IMG/VR virus record: IMGVR_UViG_3300048906_000028
Span: 1-54,183 of that record
DNA: 54,183 nucleotides
Strand: one strand, 5' to 3'
Origin: a virus
A program made the translations under genes and the position numbers. The notes beneath the pieces were generated by a model. The model was not told where the DNA came from. It was given only the letters and a program-made list of their open reading frames with translations, and made no database searches. Numbering within the stretch: position 1 is the first letter of the stretch; every line of letters starts with the position of its first letter. Below, in pieces: positions 21,835 through 54,183 of this stretch.

Positions 21835-21845
21835 GGAGAAGCAAC

Positions 21846-22031: not shown

Positions 22032-22039
22032 TAAACCCC

Positions 22040-22059
22040 GGGCCGCCTCCGTGCGGCCC
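22040..22059 (+). terminator. Stem-loop
   Basis: GGGCCGC-CTCCGT-GCGGCCC, with no T-tract. Confidence 0.35.
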
Positions 22060-22080
22060 TAAGAATTCAGAAGGACTACC

Positions 22081-22886: not shown

Positions 22887-22895
22887 CGCCGCGCA

Positions 22896-25013: not shown

Positions 25014-25021
25014 AGGCAATC

Positions 25022-25842: not shown

Positions 25843-25873
25843 ACTACAAACTCTAGACGCCGCCCGCCCCCTG

Positions 25874-25882
25874 TGGTATACT
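25874..25882 (+). promoter_or_regulatory. Extended -10-like element, TGGTATACT
   Basis: ctgTGGTATACT is followed by the hairpin GGGGAACC/GGTTCCCC and ATG 25917. Confidence 0.35.
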
Positions 25883-25916
25883 GCGGGGAACCCTTGACCA
25901 GAATGGTTCCCCCTAA

Positions 25917-26285
25917 ATGTCGAACGCCCTTTACAATGATGTGGCACAAATTGCCGATGACCTTTTTACCGAGTTCGGTCAAAAGGTAACCATTGTTAGC
26001 AAAGGTAAGCGGGATTACGATCCGGCCATCGGCGGCGCGGCTCCATCCAGTACCACCACGCAAACCACGCAAGGTTTCGAAATGTCGTACGCCTCGCACG
26101 AGGTAAATGGGACCAGCGTGCTGGCCACCGACATCAAGGTGTACCTCTCCCCCGTAGGCATCACCGAACCGCTTCACGGTGATCAACTGTCCCTGGAGGA
26201 CGGCCGAAAATTCAAAGTCCAGCACGTGATGGCCACCCGTCCCGCAGGTCAAACGGTCCTATACGAAGTCCAGGCGCGGGTATGA
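25917..26285 (+). CDS. Head closure / head-tail joining protein
   Basis: 122 aa. Assigned from position and a C-terminal pattern (GDQLSLEDGRKFKVQHV...LYEVQAR) like SPP1 gp16-type proteins. Confidence 0.55.
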   Translation: MSNALYNDVAQIADDLFTEFGQKVTIVSKGKRDYDPAIGGAAPSSTTTQTTQGFEMSYASHEVNGTSVLATDIKVYLSPVGITEPLHGDQLSLEDGRKFKVQHVMATRPAGQTVLYEVQARV

Positions 26286-26743
26286 CGGTCGACAACGCCA
26301 AATTCCAAGAGGACTTCGCAAAGATTCTCCGCAAAGCCCAATCCAAAGGCGACCGCCTGGTGGCGGCTTGCGCCATGGACGTTCTTGGCAAACTGGTTGA
26401 ACGAAGCCCCGTAGGTAACCCTGCGATTTGGAAGAATCCTGCTTCGGCCCCGCCAGGCTATGTGGGTGGTCGGTTCAAAGCCAACTGGCAGGTGGGAGTA
26501 GGTCTGATCAACACCGACACCAGCGCCCAACCTGATGCAAGCGGCAAAGATGCCCTGGGCCGTGGTCAAGGCGTGGTTAACAGTTGGAAAATCCAGGGCA
26601 AGCTGTACCTCACCAATTCAATGCCGTACGCCAAGCGGATCGAGTATGAACATTGGTCACAACAGGCCCCGGCAGGTGTGTCCCGGCTGGCGGCTATGGA
26701 GTTCATGCAGACCATCACCAGGCTGGCGGCCCAAATCCAATGA
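26282..26743 (+). CDS. Neck / tail-completion protein (HK97 gp10-like)
   Basis: ATGA overlap with the upstream gene. 153 aa. Assigned mainly by position. Confidence 0.55.
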   Translation: MTVDNAKFQEDFAKILRKAQSKGDRLVAACAMDVLGKLVERSPVGNPAIWKNPASAPPGYVGGRFKANWQVGVGLINTDTSAQPDASGKDALGRGQGVVNSWKIQGKLYLTNSMPYAKRIEYEHWSQQAPAGVSRLAAMEFMQTITRLAAQIQ

Positions 26744-27156
26744 CCATTTCCGCAGAAACCGCTATCCGGAGGGCCTTCGAGACGCGCTTGGCAGCGATGG
26801 CTACTAATATAGCCATCGCCTACGAAGCGTTCGACTTCACCCCCGTCGATGGCGTTCCTTACCAGTATTGCGCTATCCTGCGGGCAGCTGACGAGAAGCC
26901 GGAAATGTCGCGGAAGATGACCATCCTTCGCGGAATCTTCCAGGTCACCTTGATGTACCCCCTGGGGGACGGTGCAGCCGATGCCGAGACCCAGGCGGGT
27001 GTGGTCAAAGAATGGTTCAAACCGGTCCTTACGATGAATCAGGATGGTTTCAAGGTCCAGGTCATTGACGCCATTTCAGTTTCCTCCGGGTTCAGGTCCG
27101 AGAGTAGGTGGGCTATCCCGATTTCAATCCCGTACGTCGTTCAGGTGAACGGCTGA
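26740..27156 (+). CDS. Tail terminator-like protein
   Basis: ATG 26740 overlaps the upstream stop. 138 aa, immediately before the tail tube gene. Confidence 0.55.
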   Translation: MTISAETAIRRAFETRLAAMATNIAIAYEAFDFTPVDGVPYQYCAILRAADEKPEMSRKMTILRGIFQVTLMYPLGDGAADAETQAGVVKEWFKPVLTMNQDGFKVQVIDAISVSSGFRSESRWAIPISIPYVVQVNG

Positions 27157-27223
27157 CAGGTGAAGCGCCCGCAAGGGTTTAATTAACGCCTACCATCGTG
27201 TGGGCATAAGATGAAAGCAAAAT

Positions 27224-28453
27224 ATGCCGAACGTAAATGCACAAGGCGTCTTTAAACAAACGCGGATCAAGCGCCAAACCGCTCGCGGTGTTACCGCAAC
27301 TGCCGCCGCTGGTGGCCAGATCATGCGCCGTGAAACGTCCGTCTTCGAAATGCAGAAGGACACCTTCACGACCGAATCCGAAATCACCTCGACCCAACAG
27401 ATCACTGCCAACCGCCACGGCGCGAAGCAGATCGCGGGCAAGCTGACCGGCCTGCTGTCCCCTGGCACCTACAGCGACCCCCTGGGCGCACTGCTGCGCC
27501 GCGACTTCGCAGCCGTCACGGCCGTTACCGGCGCGTCGATCACGGTGGCCGGTGCTGGCCCCACCTACACGATCACCCGCGCCGCAGGTTCCTGGCTGAC
27601 CGATGGTTTCAAAGTCGGCATGGTGACCCGCCTGACGGCCGGTGCATTCAACGCCGCCAACCTGAACAAAAACCTGTTCATTGTCGGCGCAACCGCCTTG
27701 GTCCTAAGCGTCCTGACCCTGGACGGCTCCTCCCTGGTGGCTGAAGGCCCGATCGCCGCTGCAACCGCGTCGATCCCCGGCAAGGTCACCTACACGCCCG
27801 TCACCGGCCAGACGGTGACCTATTACACGGTCGAAGAATGGATGCCCGATGCCGGTGTGTCCGAACTGAACACTGATGTTAAATTCACCCAGGCCGCCCT
27901 GTCGCTGCCAGGCACCGGCAACGCCAAGATCGATTTCACGGCGATGGGCCTGAACCAGACTTCCGGCGTGGCCGCCTACTTCCAGGCGCCTACCGTCGAA
28001 ACCACCACTTCGCCGTGCGTGGCTGCCTCGGGTGCGCTGCTGGTCAATGGCGTGGCGCAGGCCACCGTAACCGACCTGTCCTTCACCATCGACGGTTCCG
28101 GCGCGATGGCCAATGCGGTGGTGGGCACCACGGTCCGCCCGGACGTTTTCTCCGGCAAGGTCAAGGTGTCGGGCCAGTTCACCGCCTACTTCCAGGACAG
28201 CACGTTCCACACGGCATTCCTGAATGAATCGGTGTTGTCGATCCTGTCGGCCCTGGCCGCCGACTCCTCGGCAAACGCTGACTTCATCACCTTCGCCATG
28301 TCGTCGGTCAACATCAACAGTTCGACGCCGGAAGACGTTGAAACCGGCTTCAAGCGCACGTACAAGTTCCAAGCGGAACTGAACGCTGCAGGCGGCGCAG
28401 GTACCGCCACCGAAAAGACCACGCTGCAAATCCACGATTCGCAAGCGACCTAA
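27224..28453 (+). CDS. Major tail (tube) protein
   Basis: 409 aa, positioned before the chaperone pair and the tape measure. Confidence 0.7.
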   Translation: MPNVNAQGVFKQTRIKRQTARGVTATAAAGGQIMRRETSVFEMQKDTFTTESEITSTQQITANRHGAKQIAGKLTGLLSPGTYSDPLGALLRRDFAAVTAVTGASITVAGAGPTYTITRAAGSWLTDGFKVGMVTRLTAGAFNAANLNKNLFIVGATALVLSVLTLDGSSLVAEGPIAAATASIPGKVTYTPVTGQTVTYYTVEEWMPDAGVSELNTDVKFTQAALSLPGTGNAKIDFTAMGLNQTSGVAAYFQAPTVETTTSPCVAASGALLVNGVAQATVTDLSFTIDGSGAMANAVVGTTVRPDVFSGKVKVSGQFTAYFQDSTFHTAFLNESVLSILSALAADSSANADFITFAMSSVNINSSTPEDVETGFKRTYKFQAELNAAGGAGTATEKTTLQIHDSQAT

Positions 28454-43387: not shown

Positions 43388-44947
43388 GTGAATCAAACAA
43401 GCTTGCAGCGTTTCATGGCTTTATTTCGTGGCAATCCGAGGTCTTTCGGGCAGTGGAACCCAAGGGAACCTGACCCCAACCGCTCCTCGGTTACGGAGAA
43501 GAGCGCATACACCACCCGGGAATTCGAGCGGCATCTTAAAGGCATCTTCGGCATCGGTATCGTCCCTATTCTGGATGATGCCTCGTGTTTATGGGGCGCA
43601 ATTGATATCGACAATCATGGCCAGTCGGAAGATTCCGACATTGCGGCCATCGAGCAGCGGGTGCTGGCGTTAAATTTGCCGCTGGTACCATGTCGATCGA
43701 AGTCGGGTGGCGTGCACCTGTTCTTGTTCGGCCGGGAACCCTTGCGTGCGGCACAGGTGCATTCAGTGTTGAAGAAGTGGGCGAAGGACTTGAAGGTCGA
43801 AGGTGTGGACTGCATCTTCCCCAAACAATCCAGGCTTGAATTCAATAATGAGGGCGGGCGCGCACTCGGCAACTGGATTAACCTTCCATACTTCGATGCT
43901 GAGAAAACCAAGCGTTACGCGGTCATCAACAATGAGCCGCAGCCGCTTGAATTGTTCTTGACCGAGGCCGAGTCCAAAGCAGTTACTGCGCACCAGTTGG
44001 ATCAGCTGTACAACAACGAACATTCGGAAGCGCCGCCATGCATCGCGGCGATGATCACCGATGGCGTAGATTCGGGATCGCGCAACGACGCCGCATATAA
44101 CGTCACAATTTATATGAAGAAGAAGTTCCCGGAGGACTACCGGGACCGGCTTTACGATATGAATGGCCAGATTTTCAAGGAACCACTGCCATTTAATGAA
44201 ATGAAAAAGGTAGTAATGTCGGCCTCGCGGCGTGACTACCGTTACCGCTGCAGCACTGAGCCTTGTAAATCGCTTTGTGACCGCAAAACCTGCCTCACCC
44301 GCAAATTCGGCATCACCCAGGACCAGTCCGACGAAATGGACATGGAATTCGAGGTACCGGCACTTACTGACCTGGTGAAGTACAACACTAATCCGGTGCG
44401 GTGGGAAATGACCTGCGAGGGCATCCGCATCGTCGTGTCGACCGAAGAATTGTTTGAGTGGCGCGTGCTGCGATTGAAATTGGCCGAGCGCCTGCTGCGC
44501 GTGCCGCCGATGATTAAGAATGATAAGTGGCAGAAAATCCTTAAAACGATGATGGCCACGTGCCGTATTGAAGAAGCGCCAGAAGATGCATCCGTGGATG
44601 GTATCATCAAGGGCCAGCTTATTGACTTCCTGCGCAAGTGCGACCTCAACTCGCCCGGTACCGACACGGCCGAGCGCAAGGCTCTGTACCGTGGCATCCC
44701 GGTGGTACAGGTGGACGACACCGACACGCGGCATGTATATTTCCGTGGCGCGGACTTCGTGCAGCACCTCAAGCGAAACAAGACCGAAGAAATGAAGGGC
44801 GTCAATTTGTGGTTCGTGCTTAAGCAGTTGGGCGTCAACCACGGCCGCTTCCGCGTAGAAGACAAAACCCCTTCTGTGTGGTCGGTTGAGCTTACCGATG
44901 AACACCAACTTAAAATGTCAGTCCCCGACTTCACCCCGGAAATCTAA
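43388..44947 (+). CDS. Primase-polymerase (Prim-Pol) with a PriCT-like C-terminal region
   Basis: WGAIDIDNHG and SKSGGVHLFLF match the AEP catalytic motifs. GSRNDAAYNVTIY matches PriCT. GTG start lies after GGAGG. Confidence 0.75.
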   Translation: MNQTSLQRFMALFRGNPRSFGQWNPREPDPNRSSVTEKSAYTTREFERHLKGIFGIGIVPILDDASCLWGAIDIDNHGQSEDSDIAAIEQRVLALNLPLVPCRSKSGGVHLFLFGREPLRAAQVHSVLKKWAKDLKVEGVDCIFPKQSRLEFNNEGGRALGNWINLPYFDAEKTKRYAVINNEPQPLELFLTEAESKAVTAHQLDQLYNNEHSEAPPCIAAMITDGVDSGSRNDAAYNVTIYMKKKFPEDYRDRLYDMNGQIFKEPLPFNEMKKVVMSASRRDYRYRCSTEPCKSLCDRKTCLTRKFGITQDQSDEMDMEFEVPALTDLVKYNTNPVRWEMTCEGIRIVVSTEELFEWRVLRLKLAERLLRVPPMIKNDKWQKILKTMMATCRIEEAPEDASVDGIIKGQLIDFLRKCDLNSPGTDTAERKALYRGIPVVQVDDTDTRHVYFRGADFVQHLKRNKTEEMKGVNLWFVLKQLGVNHGRFRVEDKTPSVWSVELTDEHQLKMSVPDFTPEI

Positions 44948-44950: not shown

Positions 44951-46732
44951 ATGTCCCACACCACCATTGACTACGACCCAACCAAAGGCATGTTCTCGAT
45001 CAGCACACCACCCTGGAACACCAACAAGGTCCGCGACATCCCAAGCCGCCGATTCTGTAACCGAACCAAGACCTGGAAAGCACCCGCCACCCGCGTCAAC
45101 GCCCAATACATTGAAATGACCTTCCGCGATGCTGATTGGTCCCGCCTGGCGCTGGCCAAGCTGGCCGAGACTCGCGACTCAGTGGGCAAGATGGTAGCAC
45201 CCGCTCTACCGCTGCCGATTGGGTACAAGTTCAAGACGGAGCCTATGCGCACGCAGAAAACCGCCCTGGAACGCGCCTTCGGCCGTAAGGCCTTCGCCTA
45301 CTTCAAGGACATGGGCACCGGCAAGTCCAAGACTTTCATCGACCTGGCCTGCATGTCCAGGATGCACCCGCTGATTGAAACTGTCATTATGGTGTGCCCG
45401 GTGGCGCTGCGCAAGAACTGGATTCGGGAACTGGCCCTTCATTGCCCGCTGCCGTATGACATCTACATCATGAATTCGGACAAGCCGAAAGAGTTCGAAG
45501 AATGGCTCAATAAGAAGCACGACTTCAAGTGGCTGATCGTCGGTGTTGAGTCCTTGGGCATTTCGGCACGGCCTTACGAAATGATGCTGGAGTTCTTGCG
45601 CCGATTCCCGAAGACCATCATGGGCGTCGACGAGGCTACCAAGATCAAGAACCACAAAGCTCTACGCTCTCAGCGAATGCAGGCGGCCGCCCGCCACGCG
45701 GCTATCCGGATCGTCATGACCGGCACTCCTATCGCCAAGGGCGTGATGGACCTGTATGGTTATTTCGAATTTCTAGACCCGGATATCTTGGGCGTTGGTG
45801 ATTTTTATTCATTCCGCAACCGCTATGCTGAAATGGGCGGCTACGAGAACAAGGAGATCGTGGGCTACAAGAACATGGACGAGTTGATGGAAATCACCGC
45901 ACCGTTCATTTACCAGGTGCGCAAGGAAGAGGCGCTGCCGGACTTGCCGCCGAAGGTCTACACGATGCGCTACGTGGCGCTGTCGGCCGAGCAGACCAAG
46001 CACTACAAGACGATGGCCCGGGACCAGATCGTGCGAGCCACGGACGGCCGCGAGAAGCGCGTAGCCAACACCCTGGAGAAGGCGCTGCGCCTGCGCCAGA
46101 TCACATCCAACTTCCTGGCACTGGAAGACATCGACGAGGACGTTATTACCGGCAAGCGCTACATCCGCACCGAGCCTATCTGCAAGGTGTCTCCCAAGGT
46201 GGCTGATTTGATGGACTTCCTAGAGGAATTCGACAAGCCCATGATCATTTGGTGCGCATTCCGGGCCGAGCTTGACGAGGTCACCCGATCCCTGCGCGCG
46301 AAGTTTGGCGATGACCAGGTGGTGGAGTTGCATGGCGGTGTGGAAGAGAGCCAGCGCGACCTGAATGTCAACGTTCTGTTCCAGGGCGGCCAGGCCCGCT
46401 TCGTGGTGGCGATGGCTGCAGTTGGTGCGATGGGCCTCACCATGACCCGCGCCGAATGCGAGTTCTACATGTCCAACACCCACTCATTCATCGACCGCGA
46501 GCAATCCGAAGACCGCGCCCACCGCAAAGGGCAGAAGAATTCGGTGCTGTACGTCGACCAAATCGCACAAATTGAAGTAGGTAAGGGCGTGATGATGGAC
46601 ACGATTGATATGCACGTGTACAACTCCAACATGCAAAAGAAAGACCTGTCCGAGTACATCCGCGACGAAATTGAGCGGTTGGAGCGTGAAGGGCATAAGG
46701 ATTTGGCCGCGCTTTTCGGTCTCGTTGGTTGA
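44951..46732 (+). CDS. SNF2-family helicase
   Basis: DMGTGKSKT (motif I), VDEATKIKN (motif II) and QSEDRAHRKGQ (motif VI). Confidence 0.85.
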   Translation: MSHTTIDYDPTKGMFSISTPPWNTNKVRDIPSRRFCNRTKTWKAPATRVNAQYIEMTFRDADWSRLALAKLAETRDSVGKMVAPALPLPIGYKFKTEPMRTQKTALERAFGRKAFAYFKDMGTGKSKTFIDLACMSRMHPLIETVIMVCPVALRKNWIRELALHCPLPYDIYIMNSDKPKEFEEWLNKKHDFKWLIVGVESLGISARPYEMMLEFLRRFPKTIMGVDEATKIKNHKALRSQRMQAAARHAAIRIVMTGTPIAKGVMDLYGYFEFLDPDILGVGDFYSFRNRYAEMGGYENKEIVGYKNMDELMEITAPFIYQVRKEEALPDLPPKVYTMRYVALSAEQTKHYKTMARDQIVRATDGREKRVANTLEKALRLRQITSNFLALEDIDEDVITGKRYIRTEPICKVSPKVADLMDFLEEFDKPMIIWCAFRAELDEVTRSLRAKFGDDQVVELHGGVEESQRDLNVNVLFQGGQARFVVAMAAVGAMGLTMTRAECEFYMSNTHSFIDREQSEDRAHRKGQKNSVLYVDQIAQIEVGKGVMMDTIDMHVYNSNMQKKDLSEYIRDEIERLEREGHKDLAALFGLVG

Positions 46733-46739
46733 CGGAAAT

Positions 46740-46766
46740 GACCCCGCCTGGTATAATGGCGGGGTC
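46740..46766 (+). promoter_or_regulatory. TGGTATAAT flanked by a perfect 9-bp inverted repeat
   Basis: GACCCCGCC-TGGTATAAT-GGCGGGGTC. The -10 (46752-46757) sits in the loop. Confidence 0.5.
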
Positions 46767-46798
46767 GTATGAACAACACCGAATAGAGGATAACTAAG

Positions 46799-47125
46799 AT
46801 GTCGAAAGTTTTCGTTACGCAAGAGGTTTGCAACCCTCGCCAGAACATCGATTATGCGCCCGCCCGCAAGTTTGGCGAGGTCAACTTTTTGACCATCATG
46901 GATTTTTCGTCCGAGGACAACTCGCTGTCGAATCAGGTCCTGGTGGAAGAACTGCGCGCAAAGCTGCTCGACTTCGTACCAACCGAGGATTACATCGTCA
47001 TCACTGGCTCCCCCATCGTGGCGGCCGTGGTGTTCATGATCCTGCGTGAAAGAACTGCCAGCGTGAATTTCCTGCGCTGGTCCAACCGCGATCACTGCTA
47101 CCAACCAGTGACCATCAAGCTGTAA
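46799..47125 (+). CDS. Hypothetical protein (108 aa)
   Basis: ORF after the GAATAGAGGATAAC leader. Confidence 0.65.
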   Translation: MSKVFVTQEVCNPRQNIDYAPARKFGEVNFLTIMDFSSEDNSLSNQVLVEELRAKLLDFVPTEDYIVITGSPIVAAVVFMILRERTASVNFLRWSNRDHCYQPVTIKL

Positions 47126-47146
47126 TTTATCAATAGAGGATAGAGC

Positions 47147-47581
47147 ATGACCGAAGAATTTCAAAACGCGTACTCCAAGTACGATTCGATGACCGCCGTG
47201 GAACTGGTTCGCGCCATGGCCGAAGTGCGCGCCGTTAAAGATGCGCACGAAGAAGCTGGCAAGAAGATTACCGCGGAATTCGATTTCCTGCGCAACATCA
47301 AGATTCCGCAGGTCTTCGAAGACCAGGGCCTGCAGATTGTCAAGGTCGAAGGCGTCGGCCGCTGCAATCTGACCGGCGACCTCCAGGTCACCATCCCCGC
47401 CGCCAACAAGGACGAGGCTTACACCTGGCTGCGCGACACCGGTCGTGGCGACCTGATCACCGAAACCATCAACTCTTCCACCCTCAAGGCGATGACGAAA
47501 GCCCTGATGCAGGCTGGAGAAGAAGTGCCCGAGTGCTTCCGCGTCCACACCTTCACCCGCGCCTCCATCACGAAGGGCTGA
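47147..47581 (+). CDS. Hypothetical protein (144 aa)
   Basis: ORF after the CAATAGAGGATAGAG leader. Confidence 0.65.
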   Translation: MTEEFQNAYSKYDSMTAVELVRAMAEVRAVKDAHEEAGKKITAEFDFLRNIKIPQVFEDQGLQIVKVEGVGRCNLTGDLQVTIPAANKDEAYTWLRDTGRGDLITETINSSTLKAMTKALMQAGEEVPECFRVHTFTRASITKG

Positions 47582-47732
47582 CCCGAGCAGCGTGTAGAGT
47601 CTCCTCACAGCGTGAGTTCCGCCCATACTGGAGCGCTCCGGTCAAGCGGCGCAAGCAATAGCGCACAATGCAGACTTGGCCAGCCGGAAAAGTAGCGGCA
47701 CCCCCTAAAACTTAAATCGAAAGCAAGTAACC

Positions 47733-48557
47733 ATGGCAACGAAACCAGCAGCAAAAACCGCAGTGAAGAAAAACGAAGTCGCCAACGAACTGGTCGACGC
47801 GGCCCCCGGTGGCGCTCTCCAGACCATCGGCGATCCAAGCCTGCCAGCGTTCTTGCAGGGCAAGAGCGGCCCCGCCCGTGGCGCAGAAAACGTATCCATG
47901 GATGATCTGGTCATCCCGCGCCTGGAATTGGTGCAGGCCCTGTCGCCCTGCCTCAAGGAAAAGGACCCTGGTTACATCGACGGCGCGAAGCCCGGCATGC
48001 TGTTCAACAACGTAACCCGCGAACTGTACGGCAATTCGGTCATTGTGATCCCGGTGTACTTCAAGAAAGAGTATATCGTGTGGAAGGACCGCAAGAAGGG
48101 CGGCGGCTTCGTGGGCGCGTTCTCGTCGCCGGATGAAGCCGAACAAGTCCTGGCCGCGCAGGAGGTACCAGACGACCACCGCGTCAACGATACCGCCAAT
48201 CATTTCTGCCTGCTGCGCAACCCCGCCACCGGCAAGCTGGAAGAAATCGTCGTGTCGATGGCTGTCACCAAGCTCAAGGTGTCGCGCCAGTGGAATTCAC
48301 TGATCCGCATTAACGGCGGTGATTCCTTCACCCGCGCCTACATGCTGTCCGGCGTCGAAGACAAGAACAAAGCTGGTGAAGAATACAACAACTTCGCCGT
48401 GAAGAACGTTCCTGGCTTCGTGGCCGAAATCGAGTACCGTCAGGCGGAAGCTCTGTACGATACCGTGAAGCAGGGCCTGGTGGTCATCAACCGTGATGAA
48501 GAAGGCGACGATGTTGGCGGCCCTGGCCCCGGCACGGGCGGCAACCCCGAGTATTAA
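47733..48557 (+). CDS. Possible ssDNA-binding/annealing protein (274 aa)
   Basis: It lies in the replication module and has an acidic C-terminal tail ending in an aromatic residue (DEEGDDVGG...NPEY). The function is inferred only. Confidence 0.5.
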   Translation: MATKPAAKTAVKKNEVANELVDAAPGGALQTIGDPSLPAFLQGKSGPARGAENVSMDDLVIPRLELVQALSPCLKEKDPGYIDGAKPGMLFNNVTRELYGNSVIVIPVYFKKEYIVWKDRKKGGGFVGAFSSPDEAEQVLAAQEVPDDHRVNDTANHFCLLRNPATGKLEEIVVSMAVTKLKVSRQWNSLIRINGGDSFTRAYMLSGVEDKNKAGEEYNNFAVKNVPGFVAEIEYRQAEALYDTVKQGLVVINRDEEGDDVGGPGPGTGGNPEY

Positions 48558-48574
48558 TCAGCACTAGCAGTCGG

Positions 48575-48596
48575 CGGGGGCTTCGGCCCCCGTTTT
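48575..48596 (+). terminator. Intrinsic terminator
   Basis: CGGGGGC-TTCG-GCCCCCG followed by TTTT. Confidence 0.7.
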
Positions 48597-48618
48597 CACA
48601 TAGAGAATAAGGAGCAGT

Positions 48619-48750
48619 ATGAGCAAGTACCAATTCAGTATCCTGATGACTGCGATTTGGATATCGCCCCTCGGCCCAAGTTGGGTTAACATCGTCGGCG
48701 GTTTGCTTTATGTCATGATCAGCTTCATCAACTACCGGAACAGCAAGTGA
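48619..48750 (+). CDS. Small hydrophobic peptide (43 aa)
   Basis: ATG follows the ATAGAGAATAAGGAG leader. The stop overlaps the helicase GTG (GTGA). Two hydrophobic segments. Confidence 0.45.
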   Translation: MSKYQFSILMTAIWISPLGPSWVNIVGGLLYVMISFINYRNSK

Positions 48751-50171
48751 AGCAAGCGTACGCTATCTACGGGCCGCCTGGGTGCGGTAAGACCACCAAA
48801 ATCATCCAGATGATCGGAGATTTCGTGGAATTTGGCTACGATATGAACGACATTGCACTGATGTCCCACACCCGCGCCGCCGCCAAAGAGGCGCTGGAGC
48901 GCACTGACCTGGAGCGCTCCGATAAGTTCTCCACGATCCACTCACAAGCCTACCGCATGCTCAATCTGTCGTCCAATCAGTTGGTCGACAATAAACGGCT
49001 GCTTGAATTCTCAAACGTAATCGGCGTGCCCATTAAAAATGGTTCCGTGGACTCGGAAGAGGGTATCGAAGTAGGCGACGAATTCCTCGGTATTCTGAAC
49101 AAGGCCCGTAATCGCCTGGTCGACCCGATGGAAGAATACTACGATTCCGATCGGCCGGGATCGCTGCCGCAGTTCGAAATGTTCATCAAGGGTTACCACG
49201 ACTGGAAACGCGCCAACGGATTCATCGACTTCACTGACATGCTGGAGCGCTTCGTATCCCGCGCCGATTTGATGGACTTCCGCGCCAAGGTCGTTTTCAT
49301 CGACGAGGCGCAAGACCTGTCGGCCCTGCAGTGGCGGGCCATTCGTGTTCTCACTAAGCACGCCGAGCGGGTAGTGGTAGCAGGCGACGACGACCAAGCC
49401 ATTTACGTGTGGGGTGGCGCTGACCCCACCGGCATGGTGCAATTTGAAGAAGAATACAACTCCAAGCGCAAGGTGCTGGAGCAGTCTTACCGAATCCCGT
49501 CCTCGGTGCACGCCGTGGCCAGGGGCATCATCGATCAAGTGTCCTCCCGTGTCGAAAAGGTGTACCATCCTCGCGATGAAGTGGGTAGTGTGACGCGCTA
49601 CGGGTACCTCCACGCGATCGACTTCAAGCACGGCGAAGACACGCTGGCGCTGTGCCGCACTGGCGCGCAGAAGAAAGAGGTCGAGAAGCATTTCATCGAC
49701 CTGGGTATCCCGTACTTGACCGATAACGGCAAGCCGGGCCTGTACCAGACCAAGACGGCCCGAGCCATCCGCGCCCTCAACAAAGCGGCTCGTGGCGAAA
49801 GCATGACCCCGGCCGAGCACGATGTCCTGACCCAAACCGCGCTGCCAAAATTCCGCGACCAGTTCAAGAACCGTAACTACAAGGATGGTATCAAAGCCGG
49901 TCACATGCGGGCGCTGCAGATTCCAGTGTGGGCGTACGACTTCTACCGCGAGGCCAACATGGACGTATCGCCCACCATCCGTCTGTCCTCCATTCACGGT
50001 TCCAAGGGCCGCGAAGCCGACCGCGTGATACTGCATACCGGAATGACTGACCGCACCGCCATGGGTTTTGAAAAGGACCCCGATTCCGAGCATCGCGTGT
50101 TCTATGTCGGGGCCACCCGCGCCCGCCATCGCCTGGACATCCTCGACGGCAACAACGGGTACCCATTGTGA
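48747..50171 (+). CDS. SF1 (UvrD/Rep-like) DNA helicase
   Basis: YGPPGCGKTT, FIDEAQD, VVAGDDDQAIY, QSYR, IHGSKGREAD and YVGATRAR. Confidence 0.8.
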   Translation: MKQAYAIYGPPGCGKTTKIIQMIGDFVEFGYDMNDIALMSHTRAAAKEALERTDLERSDKFSTIHSQAYRMLNLSSNQLVDNKRLLEFSNVIGVPIKNGSVDSEEGIEVGDEFLGILNKARNRLVDPMEEYYDSDRPGSLPQFEMFIKGYHDWKRANGFIDFTDMLERFVSRADLMDFRAKVVFIDEAQDLSALQWRAIRVLTKHAERVVVAGDDDQAIYVWGGADPTGMVQFEEEYNSKRKVLEQSYRIPSSVHAVARGIIDQVSSRVEKVYHPRDEVGSVTRYGYLHAIDFKHGEDTLALCRTGAQKKEVEKHFIDLGIPYLTDNGKPGLYQTKTARAIRALNKAARGESMTPAEHDVLTQTALPKFRDQFKNRNYKDGIKAGHMRALQIPVWAYDFYREANMDVSPTIRLSSIHGSKGREADRVILHTGMTDRTAMGFEKDPDSEHRVFYVGATRARHRLDILDGNNGYPL

Positions 50172-50299
50172 TTGCGCTGGCGCTGGTCATCTACTTATTC
50201 ATTTACGCTATTTTAAGAAAGCCAAGGCCTCCTATGCTATTCATAATAAGCTTCCTCCTGGTTGTAGTGGTCATGCTGGCCCTGGAGCGCCACCAATGA
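50168..50299 (+). CDS. Small two-span hydrophobic peptide (43 aa)
   Basis: GTGA overlap with the helicase stop and ATGA overlap with the polymerase start. Sequence VIALALVIYLFIYAILRKPRPPMLFIISFLLVVVVMLALERHQ. AT-rich codons. Confidence 0.4.
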   Translation: MIALALVIYLFIYAILRKPRPPMLFIISFLLVVVVMLALERHQ

Positions 50300-52146
50300 G
50301 CTTCCCTAAATTCGCACATTTCCCGCACTTTGCGATGGACTTCGAGACCACCGGGTTGGATTGGTGGTCATCAAAGATTTTCGGCGTAGCCCTATCCACC
50401 CCGGATGATAAGGACTACTATTTCGACACCCGTTCAGACTCCGGTGTGATTGAATGGCTGAAAGCTGAAATGCCCAAGGTGCGCGGATTGTGGGTAAACC
50501 ACAACATCAAATTCGATGCACTGTTCGCACTGGCGGCCGGGGTCAATGTCGACCTCAACATGATCGATTGCACGATGATCCGCGCCGCGCTGATTGATGA
50601 ACACCGCCTCACCTACGACCTGGACTCACTCGGCAAGTCCTGCATCGGCGTCGGCAAGGATGATTCCATCTATGGCATTCTGGCGGGCTTGTTCGGTGGC
50701 GCAGCCACCAAGAATGCACAGATGCCGAACCTGCACCGGGCACCGAAAGCGATAGCGGGTAAGTACGCAAAGCAAGATACTCGAACGGCATTGAAGTTAT
50801 GGCAGTGGCAGGAGCGCGAGATTGAAGAGCAAAGCTTGCGCCGAGTAGCTGAGCTTGAGCGGCAGTTGATCCCGGTAATCGTGCGCATCGAGCGCGGCGG
50901 CGTGCGCGTGGACCTGGAGGCGTCCGAGAAGGCCGCCAAAGCCATCGATAAGATGGTCGGGGCCACGCAGAAGGAACTGAACACCATCGCAGGTTTCGAG
51001 GTCAACCCGAACCCATCCAGTTCTATCCATAAGTTGTTCGACCCCAAGAAAAACGCAGAGGGTTTATGGGTTCTGAATGACGGCACGATTGCCGAGGCTA
51101 CCGAAGCGGGCAAGGCCTCAATCTCGGCCGACTGCCTGCGCTCGATGAAGCATCCAGCCGCCCCGTTGATTTTGAAACTGCGGAAAGCCATCAAGACCCG
51201 CGACACTTTCATCCGTGGCCATATCCTATCCTACCACAACAACGGCATGATTCACGCCAACTACAATCAGGCAAAATCGGAGAATGACCGTGGAACCGGT
51301 ACCGGCCGCCTGTCAGTGAATTCACCAGCACTGCAGCAGATTCCGGCCAGGGATAAGGATATCGCGGAGGTTGTGCGTGCGCTGTTCATGCCTGATGAAG
51401 GCCAGGATTGGGGCTGTTGGGATTGGGCGCAGATGGACTTCCGGATGATGGCCCACTACGTCAACAACCCGGTGATCAACAAGGCATATGCAGACGACCC
51501 GGCCGTGGACTTCCACAAGCTGGCTGCCAACCTTACCGGCCTGCCACGCTCGCCGCGATTCGCGGGGGATGCCAATGCCAAGCAAATTAACCTGGGATTG
51601 GTGTTCGGAATGGGTATGGGGACGCTGGCTTGGGAAATGGGTTTGCCGTTCACCATTGAGAAGTACCGGTCTCGCGGCGTCGACAAGGTGTGGAAGAAGC
51701 CTGGCCCCGAGGCCGAGGCGGTTTTCGAAAACTACCACTCCAACATCCCCGGCATACAGTCAATGCTGTCGAAAGCATCAGCGCTAGCCAAGGATCGGGG
51801 CTACGTGCTGACCATCATGGGGCGGCGCATCCGGTTCCCTGGCGGCCGTGCCACCCACAAGGCTGGCGGCCTGATTTTCCAGGGTTCGGCGGCCGATGCC
51901 CTTAAACAAAAGTTGATTGAGGTGGACCGCGAGGTGCGCGGAACCGATGCACGAATCCTGATGAACGTGCACGATGAATTCGATTTGTCGGTACCCCCTA
52001 CCATCAACGGTAACCGGCCGCCGATTCTCGATCGAATCTCCGAAATCATCACAACCTTTGATGGTGTCAGTACTCCCATTAAATTCCGCGTCCCGATCCG
52101 CTGTGATCAACAGACCGGCCCCAACTGGTGGATAGCCTCGAAATGA
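50296..52146 (+). CDS. Family-A DNA polymerase with a 3'-5' exonuclease domain; DpoZ candidate
   Basis: DFETTGL, NHNIKFD and YAKQDT (Exo I-III). DWAQMDFRMMAH (motif A), AKQINLGLVFGMG (motif B) and NVHDE (motif C). ATG 50296 was chosen over the 5' extension. Confidence 0.85.
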   Translation: MSFPKFAHFPHFAMDFETTGLDWWSSKIFGVALSTPDDKDYYFDTRSDSGVIEWLKAEMPKVRGLWVNHNIKFDALFALAAGVNVDLNMIDCTMIRAALIDEHRLTYDLDSLGKSCIGVGKDDSIYGILAGLFGGAATKNAQMPNLHRAPKAIAGKYAKQDTRTALKLWQWQEREIEEQSLRRVAELERQLIPVIVRIERGGVRVDLEASEKAAKAIDKMVGATQKELNTIAGFEVNPNPSSSIHKLFDPKKNAEGLWVLNDGTIAEATEAGKASISADCLRSMKHPAAPLILKLRKAIKTRDTFIRGHILSYHNNGMIHANYNQAKSENDRGTGTGRLSVNSPALQQIPARDKDIAEVVRALFMPDEGQDWGCWDWAQMDFRMMAHYVNNPVINKAYADDPAVDFHKLAANLTGLPRSPRFAGDANAKQINLGLVFGMGMGTLAWEMGLPFTIEKYRSRGVDKVWKKPGPEAEAVFENYHSNIPGIQSMLSKASALAKDRGYVLTIMGRRIRFPGGRATHKAGGLIFQGSAADALKQKLIEVDREVRGTDARILMNVHDEFDLSVPPTINGNRPPILDRISEIITTFDGVSTPIKFRVPIRCDQQTGPNWWIASK

Positions 52147-52403
52147 TACCTAAACGAATTCAAAACGCCACCCGGGTCCTGGGCGCTCCGGCCGACTGGA
52201 AGGATGAAGGCGGCCCCTGCGCGGGCATCCCAGTGGCCGATGTGTCAACCCCCGAAGGCCCCTTCATGGTGTCAGCATGGGAAATGACCCCGGCCGAGGT
52301 CCAGGCCGTAATCAACGGGGCTAGTGTCCGCTTGTGGATTCGCGGCATTTCCCATCCGGTGGTTGTCCTGGACGTATCACCGGTCGACAACTCTGCTACT
52401 TGA
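52143..52403 (+). CDS. Hypothetical protein (86 aa)
   Basis: ATG 52143 overlaps the polymerase stop (ATGA). Confidence 0.6.
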   Translation: MIPKRIQNATRVLGAPADWKDEGGPCAGIPVADVSTPEGPFMVSAWEMTPAEVQAVINGASVRLWIRGISHPVVVLDVSPVDNSAT

Positions 52404-52419
52404 GGCACCACAACGCCCG

Positions 52420-52448
52420 TTGACCGGTGGAAACCGGTATGGTATCAT
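52420..52448 (+). promoter_or_regulatory. Class II promoter, TTGACC-N17-TATCAT with a TGG extension
   Basis: TTGACCGGTGGAAACCGGTATGGTATCAT is a near-copy of 43330..43359. Confidence 0.6.
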
Positions 52449-52488
52449 AACGGGGGTCGATCCAGACCCCGATAGCGAAGAGAGAGAA

Positions 52489-52740
52489 ATGAATACTAAA
52501 GCTAATGAAATGAGCGTCGTCACCGGCCGGTCTCGCGAGCCGATCATGGGCTACAAAGCCACCCCGTTAAAGCGGGTTGTGGCCAACGTCATCCTGGCCC
52601 TCGGTGACATGTACGGCGGTCGTGCCCTGCGCCACCTGCCGGTGCACATCATGAATCCAGTTACCAAAAGCACCATCCGCACCGAAGGCCTGGTAAAGGC
52701 CGAAGGGTATAATAAAGTTTTCACCAAAATCAAGGAATAA
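52489..52740 (+). CDS. Hypothetical protein (83 aa)
   Basis: Internal ATG after the GATAGCGAAGAGAGAG leader. Confidence 0.6.
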   Translation: MNTKANEMSVVTGRSREPIMGYKATPLKRVVANVILALGDMYGGRALRHLPVHIMNPVTKSTIRTEGLVKAEGYNKVFTKIKE

Positions 52741-52744
52741 TGTA

Positions 52745-53854
52745 ATGATCAACAAGCGCCAAATTTTCATGGTGGTAGACCTGCAGTTCGGCTCAACCGG
52801 CAAAGGCCTGATAGCGGGCCTCCTGGCCGAGAATCATCAACCCGATACCGTGGTGACCGCCTGGGCCGCCAATGCTGGTCACACCTACATCAACGCTGAT
52901 GGCCGCAAATTCGTCCACACGATGCTGGCCAATGGCGTGGTGTCGAAGAACCTCAAGCGCGTTCTTCTCGGCCCGGGTTCTTTGATCAACCCTGATGCCC
53001 TGGCCGCCGAAATTGAATCGTGCGCCGACCTGCTCCAGAACGCCGTCATCATGATCCACCCGCATGCCGCCATCATCACTCAAAAGCATATCGATGAAGA
53101 AGCCGGGCCGATGACCAAGATCGGTTCGACCAAGAAGGGCGTCGGCGCGGCAATGATCGAGCGCATTCGCCGCAATCCTGACGAGAACAATATCGCGGCC
53201 AATGCCCTGGACGGCCACCCGATGGGCCGTCATGTCGTCACGATCGAAGCCTACAACGCCGCCCTAGACGAGTCCAAGGTCATGCTGGTAGAAGGTGCAC
53301 AGGGCTACAGCCTGTCGATGTACCACGGCATGTACCCCTACACCACCTCCCGCGATGTGACCCCGGCCCAAATTTTCGCCGATTGCGCGATTCCGCTGTC
53401 CTGGTACCCGTCGACCGAAGTCATCGGAACCGCCCGCACCTTCCCCATCCGCGTGGCCAATCGCTTCGATTCGAATGGCGTCCAGGTGGGTTATTCGGGC
53501 GGCCATTACCCAGACCAGGAAGAAATTAGCTTCGAAAGCCTGGGTATGCCGGTGGAACTGACGACCGTTACCAAGCTGCCGCGCCGCATCTTCACCCTGT
53601 CCAAAATCCAGCTGCGCGAAGCTTTACGTCAGTGTTCGGTGGACTCGCTGTTCCTGAATTTCGCCAATTACCTGCGGACGGAAGACGAATTGCGCGAGAC
53701 CCTGACCACCGTGCAGGATGCCCTGATCGAATCGGGCGCCACCTCCGGTCTTTGCTGGATCGGCTTCGGCCCCACCGTCAATGATGTGCTGGAAATCACC
53801 CCCGGCACCTCCGTCGAAGTAGTGTTGGCCGCCTGGCATAAATCCCGGGGCTGA
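52745..53854 (+). CDS. purZ: Adenylosuccinate synthetase (PurA) homolog with PurZ features (N6-succino-2-amino-2'-deoxyadenylate synthase candidate)
   Basis: 369 aa. QFGSTGKG (PurA QWGDEGKG, Asp to Ser), ANAGHT, IGSTKKGVG, VEGAQGYSL...YPYTTS and TTVTKLPRR align to PurA motifs. Shorter than PurA. Clustered with MazG-like, HD and PolA genes. Confidence 0.8.
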   Translation: MINKRQIFMVVDLQFGSTGKGLIAGLLAENHQPDTVVTAWAANAGHTYINADGRKFVHTMLANGVVSKNLKRVLLGPGSLINPDALAAEIESCADLLQNAVIMIHPHAAIITQKHIDEEAGPMTKIGSTKKGVGAAMIERIRRNPDENNIAANALDGHPMGRHVVTIEAYNAALDESKVMLVEGAQGYSLSMYHGMYPYTTSRDVTPAQIFADCAIPLSWYPSTEVIGTARTFPIRVANRFDSNGVQVGYSGGHYPDQEEISFESLGMPVELTTVTKLPRRIFTLSKIQLREALRQCSVDSLFLNFANYLRTEDELRETLTTVQDALIESGATSGLCWIGFGPTVNDVLEITPGTSVEVVLAAWHKSRG

Positions 53855-53874
53855 CAGACCGCCTCCCGATATGG

Positions 53875-53902
53875 CTCCGGCCGCACGGGAGGTACTTTCC
53901 TT
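53875..53902 (-). repeat. GTACC box copy, inverted orientation
   Basis: ctccggccgcacgggaggtactttcctt is the reverse complement of AAGGAAAGTACCTCCCGTGCGGCCGGAG. It lies between purZ and the MazG-like gene. Confidence 0.7.
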
Positions 53903-53926
53903 ACATTCGAGACTATCAACCGCTAT

Positions 53927-54183
53927 ATGAGCATCGACCAACGAAGCGAAGCCCGCGAAGACGTTAAATCCGTAACCCTCGCACGCCTGCAGTCCCTGGT
54001 GTTCGGCCAGGCCAACGTGCTTTTCCCGAAACGCACCCAGTCCAAAGCCTTTCTCAAGCTGTACGAGGAACTGGGCGAAGTGATCAAGAACCCGTCCGAC
54101 CCCCTGGAATGGGCAGACGTTTTTATCATGCTGCTGGACCTGTCGAAGATGAACAACATCGATGTGGTGTCCGCGATCCTGCA
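53927..54183 (+). CDS. mazZ: MazG-like NTP pyrophosphohydrolase, 5' part (continues at nt 128 of the window after removal of the 127-bp overlap; ends at 278)
   Basis: ATG 53927. The frame is open to the contig end and in phase with ORF 24..278. Confidence 0.7.
   Translation, partial: MSIDQRSEAREDVKSVTLARLQSLVFGQANVLFPKRTQSKAFLKLYEELGEVIKNPSDPLEWADVFIMLLDLSKMNNIDVVSAIL
54057..54183. repeat. Terminal overlap, copy 2
   Basis: Identical to 1..127. Confidence 0.9.

Follow-up and report, generated by a model that had tools for sequence, protein, structure and literature searches.

The window, i.e., the whole 54,183-nt stretch of DNA that was analyzed, was found to carry on its plus strand a run of genes that extends across the contig junction. 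This run had been read in the original prediction as a 2-aminoadenine (Z-base) genome module, and each of the elements it listed (a PurA homologue, a MazG-like gene, an HD hydrolase, and a family-A polymerase) was located at the positions it gave. The functions named here were assigned by homology, at 30-54% identity to characterized enzymes. The features of the locus are:

48747..50171, plus strand: UvrD/PcrA-like helicase (PF00580, phrog_1967), a conserved neighbor 5′ of DpoZ in Z-phage replication modules
50296..52146, plus strand: predicted DpoZ, family-A DNA polymerase with 3′-5′ exonuclease of the phiVC8/SH-Ab 15497 type, 616 aa (NF038380, 7PBK, residues)
52143..52403, plus strand: orf86, a gene call in the JGI and Logan records
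52489..52740, plus strand: orf83, directly 5′ of PurZ; same position in the uncultured relatives L007, L181, L182, and L183
52745..53854, plus strand: predicted PurZ, N6-succino-2-amino-2′-deoxyadenylate synthase, 369 aa (NF038379, phrog_1211, PDB, residues, tree)
53927..54183, plus strand: predicted MazZ, MazG-like/DUF550 (d)NTP pyrophosphohydrolase, 5′ part (PF04447, 7ODY)
54057..54183 = 1..127, no strand: terminal direct repeat of 127 bp, exact match; circular-assembly overlap
128..278, plus strand: MazZ, 3′ part, joined to 53927..54183 to give 135 aa
275..466, plus strand: orf63, 63 aa, between MazZ and DatZ; overlapping the MazZ stop at its start and the DatZ start at its stop
459..1007, plus strand: predicted DatZ, HD-domain dATP triphosphohydrolase, 182 aa (6ZPA, phrog_7076, PF12917)

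Circularity of the assembly

Two Logan assemblies of the same phage (SRR35925476 and SRR35925479) are 54,086 bp each, corresponding to 54,056 + 30 bp. In both of these, and in JGI record 3300048905 (Ga0496102_0000368), the circle was opened elsewhere and the Z cluster is contiguous; at least three independent assemblies yielded this circular sequence. In light of the 127-bp terminal overlap and the contiguous cluster in the other assemblies, the split of the cluster between contig ends, which had been put forward as the new aspect of this locus, is a linearization artifact of a circular assembly. The MazG-like gene starts (ATG at 53927, 72 nt past the PurZ stop) and runs off the contig end much as predicted, but because nt 1..127 duplicate 54057..54183, its ORF re-enters at nt 128 and not at nt 1.

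Assignment of the four enzymes

The 369-aa protein contains the landmarks by which it had been recognized as a PurA homologue (QFGSTGKG, NAGHT, IGSTKKGVG, EGAQGYSLSMYHGMYPYTTS, and TTVTKLPRR), and the contrast drawn in length and P-loop with E. coli PurA (432 aa with QWGDEGKG) was borne out. It scored 358 bits against the curated NCBI PurZ model NF038379 (cut-off 300), matched phrog_1211 at 1e-88, and matched the structures of phiVC8 PurZ (6FM1, 9e-90) and S-2L PurZ (7ODX, 1e-78). Residues S17, F15, T273, F306, N308, Y309, and L278 fit PurZ: (i) F15 and T273 correspond to the residues that, in phiVC8, reportedly make room for dGMP's 2-amino group; and (ii) LNFANY, in place of the guanine-specific TKLD motif of PurA, points to an ATP-type pocket (PMC8342488; bioRxiv 10.1101/2025.10.22.683976). 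An insertion follows V237. In a neighbor-joining tree with a single PurA outgroup, the protein fell inside the clade bracketed by the phiVC8, S-2L, and SH-Ab 15497 PurZ proteins (bootstrap 96), apart from actinophage PurZ0 and E. coli PurA.

The 135-aa MazZ, a sequence identical to one on record from a JGI contig of 54,183 bp, scored 38.9 bits against PF04447 (gathering cut-off 23), and its best structure match was S-2L MazZ (PDB 7ODY, 3e-14). Alignment to S-2L MazZ, with the residue list of PMC8342488, revealed that all metal ligands are kept together with I67 and D71; the retained residues, with S-2L numbering in parentheses, are E47 (E34), E48 (E35), E51 (E38), E61 (E50), D64 (D53), I67 (I56), D71 (D60), K87 (K76), N91 (N80), R94 (R83), W96 (W85), and H106 (H95). 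The MazG-like and HD genes had been described as consecutive and both are present; they are, however, separated by orf63, which overlaps its two neighbors MazZ and DatZ by GTGA and ATGGCTGA. No Pfam or NCBIfam family was found for orf63, which is conserved in L007, L181, L182, and L183 and whose motif appears, fused to MazZ as its C-terminal domain, at six other PurZ loci.

The HD hydrolase was confirmed as a DatZ-like protein, with S-2L DatZ as its best structure match (PDB 6ZPA, 2e-17) and further matches to phrog_7076 ‘dATP triphosphohydrolase’ (1e-25) and PF12917 (YfbR-like). Residues R17, W18, I20, Q27, A30, H32, H64, D65, G72, P77, K79, K122, and D125 were kept, among them the W18/I20 pair as well as the residues that bind the metal and contact the phosphates (PMC8065100).

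The polymerase scored 840 bits against the curated model NF038380 phage_DpoZ_1 (cut-off 500), while the PolA equivalog models remained under their cut-offs, and it matched phiVC8 DpoZ (PDB 7PBK) at 5e-138 compared with 6e-39 for Klenow. Its exonuclease motifs are intact, as had been noted (D15, E17, N70, D74, Y157, and D161), the polymerase residues D376/K429/H559/D560 are kept, and it has the E1/E2 exonuclease extension with insertions 1 and 3 (PMC8599892). By alignment, the phiVC8 insertion 117-127 is absent from this DpoZ and from that of SH-Ab 15497. The two small genes expected between polymerase and PurZ are orf86 and orf83, neither with a Pfam or PHROG match; among the relatives, only the closest two (L007 and L181) conserve orf86. 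A promoter-like site was noted at ~52420..52448, and such sites are not more common in the region than chance.

Gene order and relationship to known Z phages

The best PDB matches of PurZ, MazZ, DatZ, and DpoZ were the Z enzymes themselves. Profiles, solved structures, specificity residues, tree, and gene order together support the reading of the locus as a Z-base module, with all four proteins placed in Z-genome families. The order UvrD, DpoZ, small ORF(s), PurZ, MazZ, DatZ is that of Acinetobacter phage SH-Ab 15497 and Salmonella phage PMBT28, and matching order was also detected in about 80 IMG/VR contigs. When 85 PurZ loci were compared, DatZ was present in 82, MazZ in 81, and DpoZ in 79, with matching positions and orientation; the UvrD helicase lay upstream of DpoZ in 65 of the 85, SH-Ab 15497 and PMBT28 included. 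The pathway is already known, and the same gene set is found in hundreds of other uncultured phages. That standard annotation would hide it held for the source JGI names (‘adenylosuccinate synthase’, ‘hypothetical protein’, ‘5′-deoxynucleotidase’, and ‘DNA polymerase I-like protein’), but PurZ, DpoZ, and DatZ would be named correctly under the present NCBIfam and PHROG models.

Z-DNA was reportedly shown in SH-Ab 15497 by Zhou et al. in 2021. The group of PurZ/DpoZ siphophages formed by this phage and PMBT28 shares with the window the module order SNF2 helicase, Pam3_gp32, DUF7307, Pam3_Gp34, UvrD helicase, DpoZ, small ORF, PurZ, MazZ (DUF550), and DatZ. Identity to this group is 51-54% for PurZ, about 47% for DpoZ, and 26-33% for DatZ, and no similarity to it was found at the DNA level. 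In the window, MazZ consists of a stand-alone DUF550 domain and is short (135 aa), whereas the proteins of the group are 290-385 aa with an N-terminal extension and a long C-terminal tail; the separate 63-aa ORF between MazZ and DatZ is likewise a difference. As for head and tail genes, those of the window bear no relation to the group and resemble those of the temperate Caulobacter phage DMCA.

PurZ of Vibrio phage phiVC8 shares 49% identity with that of the window, including every substrate-pocket residue, but lacks the longer insertion after V237; its DpoZ, about 40% identical, likewise has the E1/E2 exonuclease extension with insertions 1 and 3 and carries the insertion 117-127 in addition. 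Unlike the window, phiVC8 has a primase gene between DpoZ and PurZ, and the 86-aa ORF in its MazZ position has no match to the window MazZ. Cyanophage S-2L has the contiguous purZ-mazZ-datZ triad found here; its MazZ belongs to the subfamily of the window MazZ (40% identity), with every ligand kept, and the W/I/P specificity residues of its DatZ are kept here. S-2L lacks DpoZ and replicates via a PrimPol indifferent to A versus Z (PMC8065100), whereas the window encodes DpoZ and a separate AEP-type primase (43388..44947).

The uncultured relatives from metagenomes, among them L007 (Logan SRR30224795 contig, 54,202 bp), L181 (SRR13512917), and L182 (GCA_040384225.1), have PurZ proteins that are 66-72% identical and are separate species-level lineages. 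L007, the sole relative compared over a longer stretch, matches the window in the genes present and their order between the primase and DUF2786. The relatives have orf63 and orf83 in common, orf86 is found in L007 and L181, their MazZ proteins range from 118 to 217 aa, and L181 has an extra PF18909 dGTP_diPhyd_N gene 3′ of DatZ.

Proposed pathway and palindrome usage

The window very probably represents the complete circular genome of a tailed, uncultured phage from a metagenome; its 54,056 unique bp encode a canonical PurZ-type A→Z pathway. Based on the characterized homologues, MazZ would hydrolyze dGTP, and possibly dATP, to the monophosphate and in this way supply dGMP, which PurZ may, with use of ATP or dATP, condense with aspartate to N6-succino-2-amino-2′-deoxyadenylate. 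Host PurB, a host nucleoside-monophosphate kinase, and NDK would then yield dZTP; no phage genes for these three steps were found among the proteins scanned. DatZ is predicted to destroy dATP, giving dA and triphosphate, and the proofreading DpoZ would preferentially keep Z opposite T. We infer that the virion DNA contains Z; if so, the packaged ZTGC DNA would evade many restriction enzymes with A:T pairs in their sites.

Genome-wide, hexamer palindromes without A/T were depleted (O/E 0.52), whereas those with 2, 4, and 6 A/T positions were not (O/E 1.00, 0.93, and 1.04), and both genome halves showed this pattern. The comparator with canonical DNA, phage DMCA with its related head module, differed (A/T-containing palindromes depleted: 7% here versus 61% in DMCA). 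GC content and host partly confound this signal, which fits the Z-DNA model as indirect support and is in line with a report that dZ-rich sites are resistant and CCGG fully sensitive (PMC12944874). Between PurZ loci and controls the signal did not differ in the GC 0.60-0.66 bin, and the verified Z-phage S-2L displayed little avoidance of either palindrome class.

Alternative readings

A genuine PurZ-type cluster could also operate with partial substitution or with one inactive component, leaving mixed A/Z or canonical DNA in the virion. Certain A/T-containing sites would accord with this, as depletion persists for GATC (218 occurrences against 294 expected) and AAGCTT (7 against 19), and GGATCC is under-represented. 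Nonetheless, we consider it improbable: every residue checked for catalysis or specificity is intact in each of the four enzymes, the overlap of start and stop codons speaks for a module that is maintained and co-expressed, and A/T-containing palindromes show no avoidance as a class, unlike in the canonical comparator. PMC8065100 and PMC12884076, moreover, describe natural Z phages as replacing A by Z systematically (S-2L) or completely.

It is far less probable that the 369-aa protein is an ordinary PurA, an auxiliary metabolic gene boosting AMP, with the MazG-like and HD proteins as generic nucleotide house-cleaning and the DNA canonical. Pfam does report only PF00709 (Adenylsucc_synt), in line with the JGI name, and many catalytic residues are common to this protein and PurA. 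However, the PurA equivalog models of NCBIfam fell far under their cut-offs (143 versus 368, 113 versus 396, and 94 versus 402) where the PurZ model passed, and structure matches to PurA reached 1e-28 at best and 1e-11 for the E. coli enzyme, compared with 9e-90 for phiVC8 PurZ. In addition to the replaced TKLD motif, S17 stands where PurA has the catalytic Asp13 and L278 where it has R303, and the gene lies in tight linkage with DatZ, MazZ, and DpoZ, an arrangement shared with verified Z phages.

A PurZ0-type system, the GTP-dependent, PurA-like actinobacteriophage variant partnered by DutZ, DmtZ, and DUF5664 instead of DatZ and MazZ, shares the P-loop Ser and would fit a weak match (1e-19) to PDB 7VF6, deposited as ‘PurA-like adenylosuccinate synthetase’, but is scarcely credible here since (i) the P-loop reads GSTGKG and not GSEAKG; (ii) the guanine-motif Asp kept in PurZ0 (LTMLD, LSFAD) is Asn; (iii) identity is 29-33% to actinophage PurZ0 versus 49-54% to PurZ; (iv) dUTPase-like, NDT, and DUF5664 domains were found neither in the scanned proteins nor in the precomputed Pfam hits for gene calls at ~25.3-54.2 kb and 0-9.8 kb; and (v) PurZ0 forms a separate branch in the tree, and DatZ and MazZ are both present.

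The Z cluster lies unbroken on a circular phage genome

The window (54,183 bp, 58% GC) was found to carry an exact 127-bp direct repeat at its ends (nt 1..127 = nt 54057..54183), which identifies it as a circular assembly with 54,056 bases of unique sequence; the repeat is a k-mer overlap from circular assembly. The original prediction had described the Z cluster as divided by the contig junction and had taken this division to be its novelty. Two independent assemblies of the same phage were identified in Logan (SRR35925476 and SRR35925479, each of 54,086 bp = 54,056 + 30), in which the circle was opened at another point, and the cluster was read unbroken and away from contig ends in both of these as well as in JGI 3300048905/Ga0496102_0000368. 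Together with the end repeat, these assemblies reveal that the split is only the opening point of a circular copy, and the claimed novelty is thus an artefact. The genes themselves were present as predicted, including a 369-aa PurA homologue with its PurA landmark motifs and the P-loop QFGSTGKG, an HD protein, and a family-A polymerase separated from purZ by two small ORFs. The MazG-like gene required partial correction: it does start (ATG at nt 53927) 72 nt past the purZ stop codon and run off the end, but because of the terminal repeat it resumes at nt 128 and not at nt 1, giving a protein of 135 aa. This exact 135-aa sequence is also recorded from a JGI contig. All called genes were on the + strand (gene calls covering about 25.3-54.2 kb and 0-9.8 kb), and the cluster was composed of the following.

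50296..52146, + strand, family-A DNA polymerase (predicted DpoZ, aminoadenine-incorporating PolA of the phiVC8-like clade)
52143..52403, + strand, small ORF (orf86)
52489..52740, + strand, small ORF (orf83)
52745..53854, + strand, PurA homologue (predicted PurZ, succino-amino-deoxyadenylate synthase)
53927..54183 and 128..278, + strand, MazG-like protein (predicted MazZ, dGTP or dATP pyrophosphohydrolase)
275..466, + strand, small ORF of 63 aa between mazZ and datZ (orf63)
459..1007, + strand, HD protein (predicted DatZ, dATP triphosphohydrolase of the HD superfamily)

The expectation that standard annotation would assign generic names held for IMG, where the cluster appears as 'adenylosuccinate synthase', 'hypothetical protein', and "5'-deoxynucleotidase", but no longer applies to NCBIfam and PHROGs, whose models would name PurZ, DpoZ, and DatZ. 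In practice, generic names in the IMG annotation still hide Z clusters (PurZ, MazZ, and DatZ) like that of the window. Scans for promoters and terminators within the cluster returned counts that were not above shuffled expectation.

The PurA homologue has the profile, phylogeny, and residues of PurZ

The 369-aa protein was compared with curated profiles, solved structures, and verified enzymes. It passed the NCBI curated PurZ model NF038379 (358.4 bits, cut-off 300) and failed all PurA equivalog models (143 vs 368, 113 vs 396, and 94 vs 402 for score and cut-off, respectively). A match to PHROG 1211 was detected at 1e-88, and the solved structures of phiVC8 PurZ (9e-90) and S-2L PurZ (1e-78) were far closer than those of PurA, the best of which was archaeal (1e-28), with E. 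coli PurA at 1e-11. A bootstrapped neighbour-joining tree of 32 sequences with one PurA outgroup only placed the protein in a clade with the enzymes of phiVC8, S-2L, and SH-Ab 15497 (bootstrap 96), with PurZ0, the GTP-dependent PurA-like variant of actinobacteriophages, and E. coli PurA outside. The comparison with PurA and verified PurZ sequences that had been put forward as a check on this gene thus sided with PurZ.

When the protein was aligned with E. coli PurA and three verified PurZ enzymes, it was seen to have all PurZ-specific residues of PMC8342488 and bioRxiv 10.1101/2025.10.22.683976. In the P-loop, S17 was found where PurA has its catalytic Asp (Asp13). Residues F15, S17, and T273 align with S-2L Y21, S23, and T273 and with phiVC8 F12, S14, and T262, the latter reported to make room for dGMP's 2-amino group (PMC8342488; bioRxiv 10.1101/2025.10.22.683976); the corresponding residues of E. 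coli PurA are W, D, and G. L278 occupies the position of PurA R303 (R304 counting the initiator Met), which contacts the ribose 2'-OH and whose loss, together with a loop insertion after Val, is associated with deoxyribose selectivity (PMC8342488). The insertion was also detected, in that ANRFDSNGVQVGY comes after V237, a feature shared with S-2L and SH-Ab 15497. Thus, the residues expected to contact the 2-amino group and the deoxyribose were all of the PurZ type. The sequence LNFANY (F306, N308, and Y309; phiVC8 F295/N297/Y298), which aligns with the guanine-binding TKLD of E. coli PurA, is a predicted adenine/ATP-type NTP pocket instead of the guanine-binding [T/S]KxD motif. The enzyme is predicted from its sequence to catalyze dGMP + Asp + ATP -> dSMP and not to use IMP + GTP.

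A PurZ0-type system was considered as an alternative and judged very unlikely. The window protein has GSTGKG and LNFANY, compared with GSEAKG and a retained Asp (LTMLD or LSFAD) in PurZ0, which occupies a separate branch of the tree. Domains of the PurZ0 partners dutZ, dmtZ, and DUF5664 were not found among the proteins scanned and the gene calls retrieved.

DatZ, MazZ, and DpoZ retain the determinants of their characterized relatives

The remaining proteins of the predicted PurZ-type module were examined in the same manner. For the HD protein, the best solved relative was S-2L DatZ (2e-17), followed by YfbR (1.5e-5), and PHROG 7076 'dATP triphosphohydrolase' was matched at 1e-25. Its metal ligands H32, H64, D65, and D125 (S-2L H34, H66, D67, and D119) and phosphate contacts R17, K79, and K122 (S-2L R19, K81, and K116) were kept and found to be invariant in a five-sequence alignment. 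The specificity residues W18, I20, and P77 were likewise present, corresponding to S-2L W20, I22, and P79, of which W20 excludes the 2'-OH and I22 the purine 2-amino group (PMC8065100); the W-x-I pair has been seen only on dZ-enriched contigs (bioRxiv 10.1101/2025.10.22.683976). The identification of this protein as DatZ was in this way borne out by structure match, ligands, phosphate contacts, and specificity residues, and hydrolysis of dATP but not of dZTP or dGTP is predicted.

The MazG-like protein was found to be a short stand-alone protein of the DUF550/MazZ-1 type (PF04447, 38.9 bits vs a threshold of 23). S-2L MazZ (7ODY, 3e-14, 40% identity) was the only significant structure, the next PDB match being non-significant. 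Based on the residue list of PMC8342488, the protein keeps (i) the metal ligands E48, E51, E61, and D64 (S-2L E35, E38, E50, and D53), with E47 corresponding to E34; (ii) the transition-state residue R94 (S-2L R83); and (iii) the guanine determinants I67 and D71 (S-2L I56 and D60). The proposed relationship to MazZ agrees with the ligands and guanine determinants retained.

The polymerase passed the curated DpoZ model NF038380 (840.3 bits, cut-off 500) and scored below the cut-offs of generic PolA equivalog models; its match to the phiVC8 DpoZ structure (5e-138) was likewise stronger than that to Klenow (6e-39). Both the exonuclease residues (D15, E17, N70, D74, Y157, and D161) and the polymerase residues (D376, K429, H559, and D560) were present. 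In addition, K139 and M143 match R/K161 and M165 of the extended E1/E2 helices (features from PMC8599892), a segment of 35 aa in the window protein vs 26 aa in Klenow, and clade-specific insertions were detected (23 vs 17 residues for insertion 1 and 28 vs 10 for insertion 3). By contrast, insertion 117-127 is found in phiVC8 DpoZ only and is absent from the window protein and SH-Ab 15497. By homology, the window DpoZ would prefer Z over A opposite T.

Gene order is conserved on a mosaic genome

The purZ, datZ, mazZ, and dpoZ genes were all located within 4.9 kb on one strand. The wider order (SNF2 helicase, Pam3_gp32, DUF7307, Pam3_Gp34, UvrD, DpoZ, small ORFs, PurZ, MazZ, and DatZ) matches that of the Acinetobacter phage SH-Ab 15497 and the Salmonella phage PMBT28 from the SNF2 helicase through DatZ, and the order of the four Z genes also matches IMG/VR loci. 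A scan of IMG/VR identified at least 417 stretches encoding a PurZ relative. The comparison of 85 loci, made up of 80 from IMG/VR, four reference phages, and the uncultured relative L007, showed DatZ in 82, MazZ in 81, and DpoZ in 79, with matching positions and orientation; nearly all of the 80 IMG/VR loci examined had the same gene set. Among 5.8 billion protein clusters, the nearest PurZ shared 72% identity with that of the window, and the nearest one from a cultured phage shared 54%; no similarity of the cluster to deposited phages was detected at the DNA level by megablast of 50,697 phage records.

Between the SNF2 and UvrD helicases (window 44951..50171) sits a block of three genes.

46799..47125, + strand, Pam3_gp32, Pfam family without an assigned role
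47147..47581, + strand, DUF7307, Pfam family without an assigned role
47733..48557, + strand, Pam3_Gp34, Pfam family without an assigned role

Of the 85 PurZ loci compared, 53-63 carry this block with the Z cluster in the same order (L001, L011, and L019-L097). Since block and cluster are conserved together, the mobile unit seems to extend beyond the Z triad to a replication module of about 10 kb.

Elsewhere, the genome encodes head proteins of tailed phages (large terminase, portal, head-morphogenesis protein, and a P22-like major capsid protein), a tail tube protein, a 1,491-aa tape-measure protein, and replication proteins (AEP-type primase, SNF2 helicase, and UvrD-like helicase). The head and tail genes share 45-65% identity with their counterparts in the temperate Caulobacter phage DMCA, including the portal, head-morphogenesis, scaffold, major capsid, connector, and tail-tube genes (window 16212..28453 vs 2370..10655 of the DMCA locus L098). 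DMCA differs in having an integrase, a repressor, methyltransferases, canonical DNA, and no PurZ, and the replication module of the window has nothing in common with it. The combination of a DMCA-like head and tail with a Z replication module indicates that the genome is a mosaic, which fits the picture of canonical-type morphogenesis and Z replication modules in PMC12884076, and illustrates how modules travel between phage backbones. A search of 185,579 species genomes with the capsid protein gave just two matching contigs, one from a Nitrospinota MAG and one from a Devosia MAG, and no usable host call. A tRNA scan found none, and Pfam and PHROG searches of the larger proteins left unassigned elsewhere in the genome identified no further nucleotide-metabolism or DNA-modification genes. 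A 705-aa ORF in the head-tail region (22896..25013) had no Pfam or PHROG match, and a 346-aa protein (11028..12068) with a C-terminal DUF551 domain (3e-8) was located amid otherwise unassigned early genes.

Proposed route to Z-DNA

Based on homology to characterized enzymes, (i) MazZ would supply dGMP; (ii) PurZ would make succino-2-amino-deoxyadenylate with ATP or dATP; (iii) host PurB and host kinases would finish dZTP, with the scanned proteins containing no phage-encoded enzyme for these steps; (iv) DatZ would remove dATP; and (v) DpoZ would keep Z opposite T. The virion DNA would then carry 2-aminoadenine (Z) where adenine normally stands. Overall, profiles, structures, residues, tree, and gene order support the original reading of a Z-genome module, which is of the canonical PurZ type and lies in a new uncultured phage lineage. 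This genome leaves knowledge of the pathway unchanged; what it provides is a complete and circular example from an uncultured sub-clade. Phages with Z genomes replace one of DNA's four letters and matter for the biology of the phage-host arms race, and PurZ, DatZ, MazZ, and DpoZ serve in the preparation of Z-DNA for synthetic biology.

Palindromes composed of G/C only are depleted

Palindrome avoidance was examined as the observed/expected ratio (O/E) of hexamers, with expectation derived from a maximal-order Markov model. Within the window, palindromes of the G/C-only class were strongly under-represented (O/E 0.52, z = -11.8), as seen for CCGCGG (6/44 observed/expected), GGCGCC (3/36), GCCGGC (3/29), CGCGCG (3/28), and GGGCCC (0/15), while palindromes with 2, 4, or 6 A/T positions were not (O/E 1.00, 0.93, and 1.04, respectively). 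The pattern was the same in the structural and replication halves of the genome, and non-palindromic G/C-only hexamers were not depleted. Such a pattern would be expected if A:T-containing sites were shielded, and it agrees with the report of resistance to most restriction enzymes at sites with 4-6 dZ and of normal cleavage at CCGG (PMC12944874). In DMCA, with its canonical DNA, 61% of the A/T-containing palindromes had z < -2.5, compared with 7% in the window. For palindromes with 0, 2, 4, and 6 A/T positions, O/E was 0.53, 0.83, 0.89, and 1.00 in the 80 IMG/VR PurZ loci (926 kb; L018-L097) and 0.88, 0.74, 0.76, and 0.87 in 80 capsid-relative loci presumed to be canonical (L101-L180), the controls being structural regions from other hosts, with GC content and host as partial confounders of the signal. 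After matching for GC, the contrast between PurZ and control loci stayed in the 0.50-0.60 bins but was gone in the 0.60-0.66 bin, which weakens the signature as a clean discriminator. GATC and AAGCTT were still depleted in the window, and S-2L displayed little avoidance of either palindrome class. A limited literature search found no mention of palindrome or restriction-site avoidance. Graded avoidance may serve as a read-out of Z substitution from sequence alone, and for the window phage the pattern is supportive of probable Z-DNA but not decisive.

Small ORFs and neighboring genes of the Z cluster

The start of orf63 overlaps the mazZ stop codon and its own stop overlaps the datZ start. A stand-alone ORF was found at the same position in the uncultured relatives L007 (SRR30224795), L181 (SRR13512917), and L182 (GCA_040384225.1) and in L183, and stand-alone ORFs of this type (59-63 aa) occur in these four and the IMG/VR locus L090. 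The product has the motif E..AY..G..DA..G, followed after 10-20 residues by AY.RGY..AGE. In at least six other PurZ loci (L018, L020, L052, L055, L056, and L071), an iterated local profile identified this motif within the MazZ ORF, where it forms the C-terminal domain. No Pfam or NCBIfam family matched orf63. An RMF/CrpP-like domain was dismissed, with hhalign giving 1.6% probability against E. coli RMF, the only NCBIfam RMF match at E = 0.12, and nothing in Pfam. A profile search of the 5.8-billion-cluster protein collection returned only eight small proteins, of which the five that could be traced came from the window itself or from contigs already known to carry PurZ, and no wider distribution was apparent in that collection. 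Among relatives, orf63 occurs both separately and as a MazZ fusion, which gives a thin hint of a functional link with MazZ. That orf63 is an unrecognized accessory component of PurZ-type Z clusters, working with MazZ, is a speculative suggestion that we consider rather unlikely.

In the DpoZ-PurZ gap, orf83 was kept directly 5' of purZ in four relatives (26-32% identity) and orf86 only in the two closest; no homologues of either were detected outside the closest relatives. In SH-Ab 15497 and PMBT28, this position is taken by a gene whose annotation reads ssDNA-binding or DNA-binding protein, and tblastn (E <= 1e-4) of orf86 and orf83 against these two loci detected no similarity. On the other side of the cluster, L181 has an extra PF18909 dGTP_diPhyd_N gene (6786..7415) about 500 nt 3' of datZ that has no counterpart in the window, and the nucleotide-hydrolase complement thus varies within the sub-clade. 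Directly 3' of datZ, the window encodes a small protein (1004..1375; 1109..1375 in public records) that matched phrog_26577, annotated as of unknown function, at 1.5e-40 and, weakly, an endonuclease VII family at 1.6e-7, which suggests a possible homing-type or HNH-like nuclease.
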